IMG/VR virus record: IMGVR_UViG_2675903313_000008
Strand: one strand, 5' to 3'
Source: a virus
Taxonomy: Duplodnaviria; Heunggongvirae; Uroviricota; Caudoviricetes
Length of the DNA stretch: 12,161 nt
The first letter of the stretch is position 1; each line of letters starts with the position of its first letter. The notes beneath the pieces are model-generated. The model did no database searches and was not told the origin of the DNA. It saw only the letters and a list, made by a program, of their open reading frames with translations. The position numbers and the translations under genes are program-made. Positions 827 to 7,740 of this stretch are shown one piece after another.

Positions 827-1354
827 ATGAAATGTAAAATCATTGCTGCCATTGCCATGCTGACAGCAGCATCATGCGGATACGCAGCAGAACAGGAAGT
901 CCCAATGAACCTTGTCAGTGCTGACGGAAAAGAAGTCAGCATTGGAAAAATAACCATTCAGGAGACCCCCTACGGTCTGCTGTTCACACCAGCCCTTCAC
1001 TCTCTGTCTGAAGGCATTCATGGTTTTCATGTGCACGAAAAAGGAAATTGCGCCCCGGCACTGAAAGACGGAAAACCGGTCGCAGCATTATCGGCTGGCG
1101 GTCACTTTGACCCGAAAAACACCGGCAAACATCTTGGCCCCTGGTCTCCGGATGGACACCTGGGCGACCTCCCTGCGCTGTTCGTGACGCATGACGGAAA
1201 AGCGAACTACCCGGTCCTGGCCCCGAGACTGAACTCATTAAAAGAGATTAAAGGGCGTTCTCTCATGCTTCATGCTGGCGGTGATAACCATCATGACCAT
1301 CCGGAGCCCCTGGGCGGTGGTGGTGCGAGAATGGCCTGCGGCATCATTCAATAA
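827..1354 (+). CDS. sodC: Periplasmic Cu,Zn superoxide dismutase (SodC family, phage-borne SodCI-like), 175 aa with N-terminal signal peptide
   Basis: The in-frame ATG at 827 is preceded by GAGGG 6 nt upstream. The translation [24 protein letters not shown]... carries the SodC hallmarks [30 protein letters not shown] and [12 protein letters not shown] (metal-binding His/Asp and the disulfide Cys pair). The ORF-track entry 320..1354 is the same frame extended upstream through the antisense of J. Confidence 0.9.
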
Positions 1355-1361
1355 TCAGTCA

Positions 1362-1390
1362 GGTAAGGGGCGGGCCCCTTACCTTTATTC
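1362..1390 (+). terminator. Intrinsic terminator downstream of sodC
   Basis: GGTAAGGGG (1362-1370) pairs with CCCCTTACC (1375-1383) around a 4-nt loop, followed by TTTATT. It starts 8 nt after the sodC stop. Confidence 0.6.
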
Positions 1391-1502
1391 CTCAGGACGA
1401 TAAATCCTTTCTCCCTGAAAAGAACGGCACATCCTCCCTCTCTGAGTTAATGTTTTTGTCGTGACATAAGAATAATTCCTTACACTCAATCTTCGTAACT
1501 CT

Positions 1503-1540
1503 CCCGCAGTTCCTGTCCGTGAGCACTGCGGGATTTTTTA
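1503..1540 (+). terminator. Second plus-strand intrinsic terminator, abutting the 3' end of I
   Basis: CCCGCAGT (1503-1510) pairs with ACTGCGGG (1525-1532) around a 14-nt loop, followed by ATTTTTTATGTTTT. The U-tract is only on the plus strand, so it is oriented for plus-strand transcripts. Confidence 0.5.
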
Positions 1541-1544
1541 TGTT

Positions 1545-2225
1545 TTATGCCTGCCGCCCGATAACCACCACCTTCCCGTCACCGCCTTCATCACGGGTAC
1601 TGATGTCCTGGGAGATTCGCCGGGAGCCAACCAGCATTTCACCGTAAGGCACCGGCATCGGGTTCCCCTGGGCAATCATGTTATCCAGCGAGGAAAAGTA
1701 CGTGTTCTGTCTGCCGTTATCCGTTGCGCGGTAATCCGGTGTTTTTGCCTTCGGGGCCAGCATCTGGGCCACACCGCCCAGAATCATGCTGGCTCCAAGT
1801 GAAAACAGCATCGTGGTGGCAGAAAAACCACCGGCTGCCAGGGCTGAACCCCATAACGCCATTGATGCCCCGGCAGTGAAGAAAGAGCCCACGATGGCTG
1901 CCGCCCCCAGCACAATCTGCAGTCCACCCTTTCCGGCCCCGGCCAGTCGCGGCACAATGTGGATGACCGTTCCCTCACCCAGCTGTTCGTGAAGACGGGC
2001 GTACACCGCCTCCGGTGCCGTGTCCTCACCGCGAATACGTATCTGGTACCAGCCTTCGTTCATCTGACGGCGGAATCCCGGCATCTGCATCGACAGGGCA
2101 CGAATGGCTTCCGCTGCCGTGTTCACATACAGGCTGAGGCGGCGGCCAAATCGTTGTAAATCCCCGTGAAGGCAGATACGTGCCAGTGGCGGTGACGCCA
2201 GGCTGAATGCGTTCGTCGTTGCCAT
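1545..2225 (-). CDS. I: Tail tip assembly protein I (226 aa)
   Basis: ORF translation MATTNAFSLASPPLARICLHGDLQRFGRR...GASMILGGVAQMLAPKAKTP...NTYFSSLDNM matches my recollection of lambda gpI. ATG at 2225-2223, TAA stop at 1547-1545. Confidence 0.85.
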   Translation of the reverse strand: MATTNAFSLASPPLARICLHGDLQRFGRRLSLYVNTAAEAIRALSMQMPGFRRQMNEGWYQIRIRGEDTAPEAVYARLHEQLGEGTVIHIVPRLAGAGKGGLQIVLGAAAIVGSFFTAGASMALWGSALAAGGFSATTMLFSLGASMILGGVAQMLAPKAKTPDYRATDNGRQNTYFSSLDNMIAQGNPMPVPYGEMLVGSRRISQDISTRDEGGDGKVVVIGRQA

Positions 2226-2866: not shown

Positions 2867-2876
2867 AAACCGGGAT

Positions 2877-3575
2877 TTACTGCGAAAGTTTGTTAATGGA
2901 AAGGAAACCGCCAAAATTGCCGACATTCCTGCGCAGTTCACACCCGCGCATGCACTTGCTGCATCTGTCCTTACGGATATCCGTGGTGGGTTTATCGAAC
3001 TCATCCGCCACAGCCCCGCCCGTGTAACCACACTCATCAGAGCGGTAGGTCCACATACAGGTGTTCGCCAGCATGATGCGACCGGGAAACAGCGCCCCGT
3101 CCGTCTCGGTCGGTGTGGCCAGCACAAACGAGGCCGTCATGGCCGTCAGCTCTGATAACTGCTCCACCACCCAGCGGTCGCTCAGCTCCTGCTCCGGGTC
3201 CGCTTCCGGATTGCCCGCCACAAAATTCACCGCATCCAGAAAACGGGCATACACCCGGCGGCGGACCACCGTGGCCCCCACCAGGCTCTGCAAATCCTCC
3301 GCCATTCCGGTGACCAGACCAAACAGATTGGACACCGTCAGCGACGGGCGGGCACTGCTGCCCTTCCCGCTCATCTCAAAACCGCTGCCGTCAATCGGGT
3401 ATGCCTGATATTGCCGCCCCTGCCAGGTGACCGGCTCCCCTTTTTCATTCAGCTCATTACAGAAAAAATACCGCTCACCACCCTGTACCGTCAGGTCGAT
3501 TTCCCAGAGTACCACCCGCGGTGACTGCTCTGACTTAACCGACTCGTTCAGGCTTTCTTCGTGAATATCCTGCAT
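2877..3575 (-). CDS. L: Minor tail protein L, allele 1 (232 aa)
   Basis: MQDIHEESLNESVKSEQSPRVVLWEIDLT...NVGNFGGFLSINKLSQ matches my recollection of lambda gpL. ATG at 3575 overlaps the stop of the upstream M-like gene; TAA stop at 2879-2877. The C-terminus is Cys-rich. Confidence 0.85.
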   Translation of the reverse strand: MQDIHEESLNESVKSEQSPRVVLWEIDLTVQGGERYFFCNELNEKGEPVTWQGRQYQAYPIDGSGFEMSGKGSSARPSLTVSNLFGLVTGMAEDLQSLVGATVVRRRVYARFLDAVNFVAGNPEADPEQELSDRWVVEQLSELTAMTASFVLATPTETDGALFPGRIMLANTCMWTYRSDECGYTGGAVADEFDKPTTDIRKDRCSKCMRGCELRRNVGNFGGFLSINKLSQ

Positions 3576-4003: not shown

Positions 4004-4014
4004 NNNNNNNNNNN
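4004..4014. other. Run of 11 N: assembly/scaffold gap
   Basis: Literal n characters in the sequence. The left flank is H-type sequence and the right flank restarts inside K at ACAGCGTGTAACAG. Confidence 0.95.
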
Positions 4015-4387
4015 ACAGCGTGTAACAGTCCGTCACCCCGTGCTCAAAGCGCCGTCCTGTCAGATGTGGCACACAGCGGAATTTATGAATTTCCCCCCGG
4101 CAGACCAGCCACCAGGACAGTGCACTTTTTATCTGCAGCCGCCGGTCGGCCTCGCTCAGCCAGGGCAGACCACCGGGGTGGCTGTGGACCAGCGCCACAA
4201 TCTCCCCCTGCATCTCTGCCCGCAGCCAGTCTTCCGGTGCAATACGAAAATACGCCTCCGGCTCTGCAGAGATATTCACACAAGGGATATACCGCTCCCC
4301 CTCCGGCGTTCTCACCACGAAGCCGCACGACTCCGCAGGCACACACCGCCGGGCATGCGCCAGAATCGCTGATTCTGTCTGTGTCAT
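4015..4387 (-). CDS. K: Tail assembly protein K, 5' fragment (first ~124 codons), truncated at the gap; copy 2
   Basis: ATG at 4387-4385. The translation MTQTESAIL...HGVTDCYTL is identical to the copy-1 K N-terminus and the reading frame runs into the Ns. Confidence 0.7.
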
Positions 4388-4392
4388 TGGAT

Positions 4393-5091
4393 TTACTGCG
4401 AAAGTTTATTAATGGAAAGGAAACCGCCAAAATTAGCCACCATGCCGCGCATCTCACACCCGCGCATGCACTTGCTGCATCTGTCCTTACGGATATCCGT
4501 GGTGGGGGTGTCGAACTCATCCGCCACCGCAGGACCGTTATACCCGCATTCATCTCCCCGGTAATCCCACATACAGGTGTTCGCCAGCATGATGCGACCA
4601 GGAAACAGCGCTCCGTCCGTCTCCGTCGGTGTTGCCAGCACAAACAAGGCTGTCATGGCCGTCAGCTCTGACATCTGCTCCACCACCCAGCGGTCGCTCA
4701 GCTCCTGCTCCGGGTCCGCTTCCGGATTGCCCGCCACAAAATTCACCGCATCCAGAAAACGGGCATACACCCGGCGGCGGACCACCGTGGCCCCCACCAG
4801 GCTCTGCAAATCCTCCGCCATTCCGGTGACCAGACCAAACAGATTGGACACCGTCAGCGACGGGCGGGCACTGCTGCCCTTCCCGCTCATCTCAAAACCG
4901 CTGCCGTCAATCGGGTATGCCTGATATTGCCGCCCCTGCCAGGTGACCGGCTCCCCTTTTTCATTCAGCTCATTACAGAAAAAATACCGCTCACCACCCT
5001 GTACCGTCAGGTCGATTTCCCAGAGTACCACCCGCGGTGACTGCTCTGACTTAACCGACTCGTTCAGGCTTTCTTCGTGAATATCCTGCAT
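4393..5091 (-). CDS. L: Minor tail protein L, allele 2 (232 aa)
   Basis: Same architecture as allele 1. It differs in the C-terminal Cys-containing region (CMWDYRGDECGYNGPAVADEFDTPTT...CEMRGMVANFGG versus CMWTYRSDECGYTGGAVADEFDKPTT...CELRRNVGNFGG). Confidence 0.8.
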   Translation of the reverse strand: MQDIHEESLNESVKSEQSPRVVLWEIDLTVQGGERYFFCNELNEKGEPVTWQGRQYQAYPIDGSGFEMSGKGSSARPSLTVSNLFGLVTGMAEDLQSLVGATVVRRRVYARFLDAVNFVAGNPEADPEQELSDRWVVEQMSELTAMTALFVLATPTETDGALFPGRIMLANTCMWDYRGDECGYNGPAVADEFDTPTTDIRKDRCSKCMRGCEMRGMVANFGGFLSINKLSQ

Positions 5092-5432
5092 CAGTTCACC
5101 ACCTGCTCTATCGTGCAACTGAAATCACTGTACCGGGCATTATCCGTGACACTCCACTCACGGCACACAACCCTCACCGTCCGGTTATGTTTCGGCGGTC
5201 GCCACAAAAAGGCACGGTAACCACCATGCCACGATAAAAACTCTTCCAGCCAGCGCCGGGTTGACTCATCCGTCACCCGGAACACCGCCTGAAACGTCTT
5301 CAGTTGAGGATTCAGTCCTGTGGGGCGACGCTGTTCATAACCGTCACCAAACCGCACCCTCACCACCGACGGCTTCTCACTCACCTGCATCCCTTCACGC
5401 GGGACCAGATGCAGCGTTTTTATCTCAGCCAC
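5091..5432 (-). CDS. Minor tail protein M, divergent variant, copy 2 (113 aa)
   Basis: Protein identical to the 3575..3916 product. Confidence 0.7.
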   Translation of the reverse strand: MAEIKTLHLVPREGMQVSEKPSVVRVRFGDGYEQRRPTGLNPQLKTFQAVFRVTDESTRRWLEEFLSWHGGYRAFLWRPPKHNRTVRVVCREWSVTDNARYSDFSCTIEQVVN

Positions 5433-6670
5433 TCAGCATTCCTCCGTCACGTCGCATGGACAGCATCACCGCCTGCACCCGCTGGTCAATCAGCTGCACA
5501 AGACTGCCTGCCGCCTCCGGCCCTATCTGGCCATTAGTCCCGTCATTCTGAATGGCGATGTGGTAGACCGGGGAATACACCAGACCCGCACTACCGTTCA
5601 TACTACCCACGGCGCGTACGCCCAGCGAGCCATCCGCCGCCCGGGTCAGGGGCATAATGGCTTCAGGTCCGGCTTCCCCCATCAGCCCGGCCCCTTTTGC
5701 AAAGGCAAAGTACGTGGGCGTGTCCACAATGCTGTTGCTGTACGCGCTCAGGTTTGCCGAGGTATACACGCCGCCTTTTGCATTGACCACCGCACCGCCC
5801 AGCCAGTCACCAATGCTGCCAAGAAATCCTCCCGCACCGGACATACCGTTTGCCGCCGTCTTGATCCCGTTGACAATCGCGGCATTCATAAGGACTTTTG
5901 AGATTTCCTGCAGTACGGATGAGGCCCAGTTGCGCCATTCCACTTTGTTTCCGTTCAGCATCTCCGTGATGTTATTCACCAGTCCTGAAATCCCCTCAGT
6001 CGCCAGCTGTGCTGCCTGAGAGGCGTAATCGGACGCATTATCCACCCAGTTACTGAGCCCCTCCTGCAAGCCTTTCTGCCAGTCCGCACGCTGCGCATCC
6101 GATTCGGCATAAAAAGTTTCCTGGTCTTTAAGGCGTTCACTCAGATACTGCGCGTTCTGTGCCAGAGCCTGTCTGTAAAAATCCTCACTGATATCCCCGG
6201 TCTGATACTGAGACTGAAGGTCCGCATCCTTCTGGCGGAAGCTGTCGCGGATCTGCTGCAACTCCCGCATGCGTTCCCTGGCTCGTTCCCCCTGCCCGTA
6301 CCCCAGCAGTTCAGATTCATTTGATGCACGCGCAGCCACATTATCATTCTTCAGGGTCTCTTCCCGGTACCGCAACTGTTCCCGGATTTTTTGCTGGTCA
6401 ATCAGGGCCGCGTTACGCAGCAGTTCCTGCTTCTGCATCTCCGTCAGGGTTTTCAGTTCGCCCTGCGCAGTCTGGTACTTCAGCTTCGCCAGCTCTGTAT
6501 TCTGACCCGCCAGTGCCAGTTGCTCTTTCTGCTGCTTCAGTAGCCGGGAAAAACTGTCTTCCGCTTTTTCCGTCTCTGATTTTCCACCCCGGGATTTAGG
6601 TTTGTTCGCCTCGTTATTACGCCAGGCTTCCAGAGCATTACTGATATAACGCTGTCTCGCCTCCTGATAC
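5425..6670 (-). CDS. Tape measure protein, H-like variant, C-terminal ~415 codons; 5' end cut off at the single N
   Basis: The translation is rich in coiled-coil Q/E/K/R/L repeats (LKQQKEQLALAGQNTELAKLKYQ...) and ends with a Gly-rich tail ...HIAIQNDGTNGQIGPEA...MRRDGGMLSG, parallel to the lambda-like H C-terminus in this window (...NNHVVIQNDGTNGQAGPQ...MRDGGVFSGGRR). The track ORF 5425..7044 joins it through the N to the K fragment and is not a real protein. Confidence 0.7.
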
Positions 6671-6671
6671 N
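6671..6671. other. Single N marking a second join between unrelated sequences
   Basis: Left of it is the interior of the H-like gene; right of it the sequence restarts at exactly the same K-internal position (ACAGCGTGTAACAG) as after the first N-run. Confidence 0.85.
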
Positions 6672-7044
6672 ACAGCGTGTAACAGTCCGTCACCCCGTGC
6701 TCAAAGCGCCGTCCTGTCAGATGTGGCACACAGCGGAATTTATGAATTTCCCCCCGGCAGACCAGCCACCAGGACAGTGCACTTTTTATCTGCAGCCGCC
6801 GGTCGGCCTCGCTCAGCCAGGGCAGACCACCGGGGTGGCTGTGGACCAGCGCCACAATCTCCCCCTGCATCTCTGCCCGCAGCCAGTCTTCCGGTGCAAT
6901 ACGAAAATACGCCTCCGGCTCTGCAGAGATATTCACACAAGGGATATACCGCTCCCCCTCCGGCGTTCTCACCACGAAGCCGCACGACTCCGCAGGCACA
7001 CACCGCCGGGCATGCGCCAGAATCGCTGATTCTGTCTGTGTCAT
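6672..7044 (-). CDS. K: Tail assembly protein K, 5' fragment (first ~124 codons), copy 3
   Basis: ATG at 7044-7042; same MTQTESAIL...DCYTL translation, truncated at the N. Confidence 0.7.
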
Positions 7045-7740
7045 TGGATTTACTGCGAAAGTTTATTAATGGAAAGGAAACCGCCAAAATTAGCCACCAT
7101 GCCGCGCATCTCACACCCGCGCATGCACTTGCTGCATCTGTCCTTACGGATATCCGTGGTGGGGGTGTCGAACTCATCCGCCACCGCAGGACCGTTATAC
7201 CCGCATTCATCTCCCCGGTAATCCCACATACAGGTGTTCGCCAGCATGATGCGACCAGGAAACAGCGCTCCGTCCGTCTCCGTCGGTGTTGCCAGCACAA
7301 ACAAGGCTGTCATGGCCGTCAGCTCTGACATCTGCTCCACCACCCAGCGGTCGCTCAGCTCCTGCTCCGGGTCCGCTTCCGGATTGCCCGCCACAAAATT
7401 CACCGCATCCAGAAAACGGGCATACACCCGGCGGCGGACCACCGTGGCCCCCACCAGGCTCTGCAGGTCCTCCGCCATTCCGGTGACCAGACCGAACAGA
7501 TTCGACACCGTCAGCGACGGGCGGGCACTGCTGCCCTTCCCGTTCATCTCAAAGCCACTGCCGTCAATCGGGTATGCCTGATATTGCCGCCCCTGCCAGG
7601 TGACCGCCTCCCCTTTTTCATTCAGCTCATTGCAGAAAAAATACCGCTCACCACCCTGTACCGTCAGGTCGATTTCCCAGAGTACCACCCGCGGTGACTG
7701 CTCTGATTTAACCGACTCGTTCAGACTTTCTTCGTGAATA
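6672..7740 (-). repeat. Repeat unit copy 3 (K 5' half + L), diverging toward the lambda-like M
   Basis: 6672 to about 7450 is nearly identical to 4015 to about 4790. Substitutions accumulate toward the 5' end of L, and beyond 7748 the sequence is unrelated to copies 1 and 2. Confidence 0.8.

Follow-up and report, generated by a model that had tools for sequence, protein, structure and literature searches.

Organization of the J-sodC-I region

The stretch of DNA analysed here as a whole, hereafter the window (12,161 nucleotides, one strand, 5' to 3'), is the tail region of a lambdoid E. coli prophage. Its positions 1300-1600 are 100% identical to NZ_CP148579.1, from which the RefSeq annotation was taken over (window coordinate = locus coordinate − 4701). 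The tail genes V, G, T, the tape-measure gene, M, L, K and I lie on the minus strand, as does the 5' part of J, the tail-tip/host-specificity gene (1-693, start codon at 691-693, RefSeq annotation of NZ_CP148579.1). J runs leftwards from 693 and forms the far border of the I-J slot. The same gene order was found in O157:H7 H6437 and in Sakai Sp4.

Between J and I lies sodC, a Cu,Zn superoxide dismutase gene of the sodC-F type with an AASC lipobox (827-1354, plus strand, ATG at 827, stop codon at 1352-1354). This moron is convergent with I, and its product, WP_000649829.1, is present in O157:H7 too. In lysogens, SodC-F is transcribed in log phase as well as in stationary phase, and does not need RpoS for this (PMC2569942); it reaches its peak in stationary phase. 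Mechanical ORF calling gives a 344-aa ORF at 320-1354, which is an in-frame upstream extension of sodC; the true start is ATG 827, with a signal of the lipoprotein type. On the opposite strand, the extra length overlaps the region where J starts. The tail assembly gene I (1545-2126, minus strand) has its stop codon at 1545-1547, so that the spacer from the sodC stop to the I stop is 190 nt long. Late-operon transcription traverses this whole spacer on the minus strand.

Elsewhere in the tail cluster, repeats were observed: 2493-2792, 4014-4313 and 6671-6970 are 100% identical, and 2873-3172, 4389-4688 and 7046-7345 are 87% identical. A K'-L-M block is present three times, and the ORF at 5425-7044 is a K-like fusion of 539 aa. 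All K-L-M repeats map to one K-L-M region of about 3 kb when compared with the complete E. coli genomes that match best. The triplication would thus result from mis-assembly, from a hybrid of several prophages, or from a rare rearrangement.

The sodC-I spacer holds no credible ORF, as had been predicted from the letters of the window: only ORFs of 34-44 aa occur. One small protein has been proposed here on the tail strand, the former ECs1119 of Sakai (68 aa), which extends across the spacer into the 3' end of I. The annotation of the first Sakai genome included it, and PMC5597208 counts it among the short annotated genes, but it has been dropped from the current RefSeq, its ribosome coverage relative to RNA is 0.25, 0.03 and 0.03 (Sakai RIBO-seq, PMC5597208), and in the window a stop codon interrupts its frame (equivalent to 1386-1598, minus strand), leaving only the short ORFs just mentioned. 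We regard a protein-coding explanation of the spacer as hardly credible. A literature search for ECs1120 found nothing relevant.

Two predicted terminators downstream of sodC

Two plus-strand hairpins bracket the spacer (1361-1384, and 1502-1533 followed by U6), and on this point the original prediction was correct. The first, T1 (1361-1394 with its tail), appears to be the intrinsic terminator of the sodC cassette itself. It begins 7 nt past the sodC stop codon, and its 10-bp stem is formed by AGGTAAGGGG (1361-1370) pairing with CCCCTTACCT (1375-1384) around the loop CGGG. The hairpin has a free energy of -17.4 kcal/mol (z = -3.1 versus shuffles) and is followed by an interrupted U-tract, TTATTCCTCA (1385-1394), with 5 T in 8 only. 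The second, T2 (1502-1539), has a stem of 9 bp, and not of 8 bp as first described, in which TCCCGCAGT (1502-1510) pairs with ACTGCGGGA (1525-1533) across a 14-nt loop (-16.1 kcal/mol, z = -3.6). Its strong U-tract and its position next to I were rightly noted: T6 follows the stem directly at 1534-1539, and the I stop codon lies 5 nt beyond.

To score these hairpins we used a d'Aubenton-Carafa-type rule of thumb, in the style of 1990, the values of which are not termination efficiencies. T1 obtained -0.8, which is borderline, and T2 obtained +21.9, which is strong; the terminators of the sRNA family described below score +22 to +29. T1 is thus predicted to be borderline or leaky. On the minus strand the two hairpins score -42 and -61. 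Such very negative values suggest that neither of them would stop the tail operon and that the late transcript would pass through. Within 600-2400 we counted four terminator-like sites, versus 1.7 +/- 1.5 in shuffled sequences, so that their number alone is not above chance. What places T1 and T2 above chance is the stability of the hairpins, together with a T2 stem that is invariant in 28/28 variants of the family (see below).

A sub-threshold match to the Rfam model of the Salmonella sRNA STnc400 was seen at 1318-1394 (23 bits versus a gathering threshold of 80, E = 0.038). It covers the last sodC codons and T1, and may only reflect a generic stop-codon-plus-terminator shape.

The right-hand part of the spacer resembles a family of prophage sRNA genes

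PasB (pathogenicity-associated sRNA B) is an sRNA of EPEC O127:H6 E2348/69, encoded by prophage PP6 and found by RIL-seq (Pearl Mizrahi et al. 2021, PMC8550237). Its coordinates are 1466343-1466261 in NC_011601.1 (minus strand), and its 83 nt were validated by Northern blot (PMC8550237 Table S6). It is strongly Hfq-dependent, with a log2 fold change of -6.8 in an hfq deletion, and has 37 RIL-seq partners in the core and accessory genome (PMC8550237). We found its gene between I and J, in antisense orientation to the two and 5 nt past the I stop codon. In EHEC O157:H7 Sakai, EcOnc22, EcOnc23 and EcOnc24 were defined as Hfq-CRAC peaks in the J-I spacers of Sp15 (Stx1), Sp14 and Sp11 (Tree et al. 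2014, PMC4104026 Table S2). They are Hfq-bound, measure about 85 nt on Northern blots and are destabilised in an hfq deletion (PMC4104026).

Relative to the sRNA body in the current NC_002695.2, the peaks listed for EcOnc22-24 in PMC4104026 Table S2 are displaced leftwards by about 100 nt. We attribute this offset to a coordinate shift between genome versions, and their identity rests not on coordinates but on the Northern probe they share, which matches the family module in the Sakai J-I spacers. The Sakai record versions presumably differ by 128 nt in length.

Judged by slot and terminator stem, which are the same in both, and by sequence (74% identity between PasB and EcOnc22), PasB of EPEC and EcOnc22-24 of EHEC are one family. 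The two studies do not cross-reference each other's names, and the note field for PasB lists no EHEC homologue (PMC8550237 Table S6; PMC4104026). In our locus collection, PasB and EcOnc22-24 are represented by L003 (3001-3100, minus strand), L244 (1334-1428), L245 and L246.

The window contains a copy of this module. An nhmmer search with a profile made of PasB and EcOnc22 matched 1446-1539 (E = 1.6e-9, 31.5 bits), the sole significant match in 12 kb; used as single queries against the window, PasB and EcOnc22 gave E = 1.3e-5 and 5.4e-6. On the basis of the profile match, the slot and the family alignment, we assign to this family a putative sRNA body at 1444-1539 on the plus strand. It is about 67-68% identical to PasB and to EcOnc22. 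From 5' to 3' it consists of GUUA and a U-run, a variable region, the core AATTCCTTA (1474-1482) ... TCAATCTTC (1486-1494), and the terminator T2. Homology to the family gene spans 1439-1539. The original prediction of a small RNA segment thus holds for the 3' 100 nt or so of the bracketed stretch, of which about 96 nt (1444-1539) are sRNA-derived and 1385-1438 are cassette spacer; its other part, an independent transcript, fared less well, as the promoter has been replaced (see below).

The likeness to PasB extends to the position right after the I stop and before J, to the orientation antisense to the tail operon, and to the elements of the transcript, i.e. the 5' GCGUUA with its U-run, the UCCUU...AAUCUUC core and the stem CCCGCAG/CTGCGGG with its U-tract. 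The two differ in the middle region and in the terminator loop, and their overall identity is about 67%. EcOnc22-24 share the J-I slot, the strand, the architecture and the terminator stem with the window body (68% identity), but they lack an upstream sodC, and the promoter block that they possess is more degenerate.

A search of the collected loci with the family profile returned 116 copies, and the alignment comprises 28 distinct variants. All 28 share the 5' GCGUUA and U-run, followed by a variable middle, and the core (A)AYUCCUUA ... UUAAUCUUC, which is apparently single-stranded. The 7 consensus pairs CCCGCAG/CTGCGGG of the T2-type stem are identical in 28/28 variants, around a hypervariable loop of 10-16 nt, and the stem is followed by U6-8. 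In the window this invariant stem is followed by U6 (a U-tract of at least 6 is the rule in the family), and T2, on the plus strand, ends 5 nt before the stop of I, which like J is a minus-strand gene. The proposal to fold the segment and look for covariation had a mixed result: both hairpins are stable, but no covariation was found among the 28 variants, where RNAalifold predicts only the terminator stem, and this stem never varies. A long-range pairing between GAGUUA (1444-1449) and UAACUC (1496-1501) was considered and is not claimed here; despite apparent compensation between two variants, all four base combinations occur.

The element is absent from current annotation. Rfam found no match in the whole window at gathering thresholds, a search which includes AgvB (RF02702), AsxR (RF02703), STnc100 and IsrG; when 1200-1700 was searched at E <= 10, only sub-threshold hits were obtained, namely STnc400 as above and anti-hemB (14 bits versus 49.5). 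The PasB/EcOnc22-24 family is absent from Rfam 15, and the window element is unannotated in RefSeq. A 15-mer scan of genome contigs gave only chance matches in unrelated phyla, and a gapped pattern scan of viral contigs gave mostly noise.

Other prophage sRNAs were considered. The EHEC prophage RNAs AgvB and AsxR (anti-sRNAs) and HnrS (EcOnc10-12) are, like the family described here, short Hfq-associated sRNAs of lambdoid moron slots. They are also multicopy and vary in their 5' part while the 3' part is conserved, but they have another sequence and another locus (downstream of PR'/Q or within late genes). Identity with AgvB/AsxR was rejected, as those sit downstream of PR' and their Rfam models fail to match the window. 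HnrS was rejected as a different sRNA.

The published distribution of PasB was established by BLAST with a word size of 28 (Zhu, Shabalina & Storz 2026, bioRxiv 10.64898/2026.05.13.724894). The longest exact word common to the window and PasB is about 16 nt, and variants of the window type were therefore probably missed in that study.

We also compared the spacer with phage genomes. The segment 1300-1600 was found at full length in two Stx2a phages only, both of which carry sodC. Its right-hand part, 1439-1600, has matches of 91-96% identity in dozens of Stx1a, Stx2c and other lambdoid phages devoid of sodC, and these matches always adjoin the tail gene I. The right-hand 100 nt or so thus form a resident module of the I-J spacer and are not part of sodC.

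This bears on the proposal that the spacer is purely a tandem terminator, in which both hairpins would have evolved as a double terminator of sodC protecting I, the DNA between them being filler. Two plus-strand terminators do stand in series after sodC, the second adjoining I, with no promoter-like site between them upstream of the body, and T2 would act as a back-up terminator whatever its origin. But in phages and prophages without sodC, T2 and the 60 nt preceding it are present at the same position, with a promoter, as validated sRNAs. T2 thus did not originate as a sodC terminator, nor is the spacer filler, and we consider this explanation very improbable. What can be retained from the fail-safe terminator initially suggested is its role: T2 is an sRNA terminator by origin, which now effectively serves as the second and final terminator for transcripts passing T1.

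Probable loss of the sRNA promoter at the sodC junction

In copies without sodC, the block directly upstream of the sRNA reads AATAAAAATTCTGAATATC-TTCACA-16 nt-TATAAT-TTCTCTG, with variants of the -10 box (AATAAT in Stx phages, TATCAT in another subtype). From the 7-nt distance to this native -10, we infer that the native +1 corresponds approximately to window 1444. In 16/16 sodC-linked loci, homology to native copies begins at TCTCTG, 1-7 nt downstream of the expected -10. The right junction between the sodC cassette and the resident module can thus be placed at 1439-1445: TCTCTG (1439-1444) is common to native copies, and A1445 is found in 16/16 sodC-linked copies, where native copies have C/A-G. 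At the -10 position itself (1432-1437), the window has TCCTCC in place of TATAAT. All that lies to the left of TCCTCC is unrelated to native copies, back to the J start: a 54-nt spacer (1385-1438, plus-strand numbering), which travels with sodC and takes the place of the sRNA promoter, then T1, then sodC. PasB, with its near-consensus TTCACA-16-TATAAT, differs from the window in this respect as well, the latter having sodC, T1 and the spacer there. As read from these alignments, the sodC cassette therefore appears to have replaced the sRNA promoter, while the whole transcribed part was kept.

Promoter scans agree with this reading, and with the earlier remark that no convincing sigma70 promoter could be seen. 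A consensus scan found no promoter-like site in the spacer. With a position-weight scan, the native promoter scores 13.0 and the Stx-phage form (AATAAT) 9.4, whereas the best site upstream of the window body scores 1.9; no sigma-70-type promoter of its own was found for the body in the window or in any of the 16 sodC-linked copies. The best site in 1340-1500 is internal to the body, TTGTCG-19-TACACT, with a score of 8.4 (top 5% of window tiles). A transcript starting from it would comprise the terminator hairpin only.

Could the body nevertheless be an independent sRNA gene, driven by a missed promoter in 1385-1443 or inside the body and giving a discrete plus-strand RNA of 50-100 nt that ends at T2? 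It is intact and nearly identical to promoter-bearing copies of Stx phages, and scanning can miss real promoters: that of Sakai EcOnc22 scores just 5.6, a weak consensus match, yet EcOnc22 is expressed. The internal site, with its 8.4, might also be invoked, but it has a 19-nt spacer and would yield the hairpin alone. Moreover, nothing upstream of the predicted +1 is related to the conserved promoter block, the two scans gave respectively nothing and a best score of 1.9, and the Sakai Hfq-CRAC catalogue (PMC4104026) has no peak at the sodC-linked Sp4 spacer. With its promoter missing, an independent transcript is improbable.

We consider it likely, in view of the alignments with native copies, that the spacer is a composite, made of the weak terminator T1 of sodC followed by a copy of a known prophage sRNA gene without its promoter. 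This estimate applies to the composite identity and to the loss of the promoter, and not to any of the expression outcomes discussed below.

Distribution of the sodC-linked arrangement

The sodC-linked arrangement was found in 539 of 5,426 complete E. coli genomes (about 10%), and the sRNA body in 1,255 of them; matches to the body alone start at window 1439. Hosts of the arrangement include O157:H7, O55:H7, O145:H28, O103 and O111, and many are Shiga-toxin producers. Nearly all sodC-linked copies are at least 99% identical, suggesting that the junction arose once and spread recently. For this reason, conservation cannot tell function from spread. Sakai Sp4 has the same spacer, with 1 nt different in the body; there it occupies NC_002695.2 1202487-1202676, and the sRNA is on the minus strand of that record. 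The arrangement is not present in Sakai Sp17, nor in the region first examined for Sp10.

Possible fate and expression of the sodC-linked copy

The following scenario would account for the present structure. A sodC moron would have brought T1 and some 54 nt of trailing DNA into the I-J slot, its cassette taking the place of all DNA from the start codon of J up to the -10 box, so that the sRNA promoter was lost. The resident sRNA gene would have been kept from approximately its first transcribed base through T2. T1, having a strong stem but a poor U-tract, may stop only part of sodC transcription. Read-through would then pass the sRNA body and end at T2, which would keep plus-strand transcription out of gene I. 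Since the body has no start site of its own, any PasB-like RNA would have to stem from read-through past T1; it would correspond to the 3' end of an extended sodC mRNA, perhaps processed, and co-regulated with sodC. If T1 is efficient, on the other hand, the body would be a silent relic, with only the back-up terminator role of T2 left.

We estimate that the silent or negligible expression of the sodC-linked body has a little less than an even chance of being right. An sRNA derived from read-through is a serious candidate, although it is somewhat less probable. A cryptic promoter of the body's own, or some other expression outcome, would each be surprising. As the Hfq-CRAC catalogue includes multicopy loci, EcOnc10-12 and the promoter-bearing EcOnc22-24, multi-mapping is not the reason for the missing Sp4 peak. 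Its absence speaks against an Hfq-bound RNA being abundant in the conditions used, and shifts the balance towards a silent relic. Start-site tables of EDL933 list the chromosomal sodC only.

Another role would be cis-antisense regulation: by pairing with the late mRNA at the I-J junction, the plus-strand RNA would modulate the processing of that mRNA, or the expression of J, in the lytic cycle. The late transcript crosses the element and is its perfect complement, neither hairpin is predicted to terminate on the minus strand, and many lambdoid phages share the slot. However, PasB, with its 37 partners, acts as a trans-acting Hfq sRNA, and the insertion of sodC puts about 750 nt between the sRNA body and the J start. 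For the family, a cis-antisense role on the late mRNA is conceivable at most, and as an explanation of the present element we find it quite improbable, slightly more so than an independent gene.

To return to read-through, a bolder form of it can be put forward. The sodC moron may have captured a free-standing sRNA gene as its 3'UTR, and read-through of a leaky T1 may be processed to a functional Hfq-dependent sRNA. This is a tentative idea, and a rather unlikely one at present. CpxQ and SroC are 3'UTR-derived Hfq sRNAs which originated inside their parent mRNA or are cut out of it. With a leaky T1, the present case would be similar, body and terminator being the 3' end of the sodC mRNA and possibly released by processing; it would differ in that a free-standing sRNA gene would be captured secondarily by an inserted gene. 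If true, about 10% of complete E. coli genomes would express their prophage defence against oxidative stress together with an sRNA regulon, both from a single promoter, and the conversion of an independent sRNA gene into a 3'UTR-derived sRNA by gene insertion would have a documented example.

The window element is now placed in an experimentally validated sRNA family tied to the lambdoid I-J slot. The family itself was already known, and the sodC-linked promoter-less arrangement is a modest new variant of it; the biological stakes are likewise modest, unless the read-through sRNA is real. As a natural promoter deletion, the sodC-linked copy nevertheless offers a test of whether the insertion of a moron silences or rewires a resident sRNA. 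It also serves as a warning for annotation, since sequence matches to the PasB/EcOnc22-24 family need not be expressed genes.

Other insertions in the I-J slot

The I-J slot is a hot spot of insertion. Among the 116 family copies, 37 (in L142, L241 and 35 other IMG/VR loci) lie behind a non-coding insert of about 150 nt, located upstream of the sRNA promoter. This insert ends in a strong terminator, CCCCGGTATCAGCAGATACCGGGG followed by T4 (score +32), and the sRNA promoter is intact there. The contrast is suggestive, if anecdotal: the insert with a strong terminator keeps the sRNA promoter, whereas the sodC cassette, with its weak T1, does not. The insert of 150 nt could itself be another small transcript. 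Finally, two loci, L172 and L168, have three family matches each.
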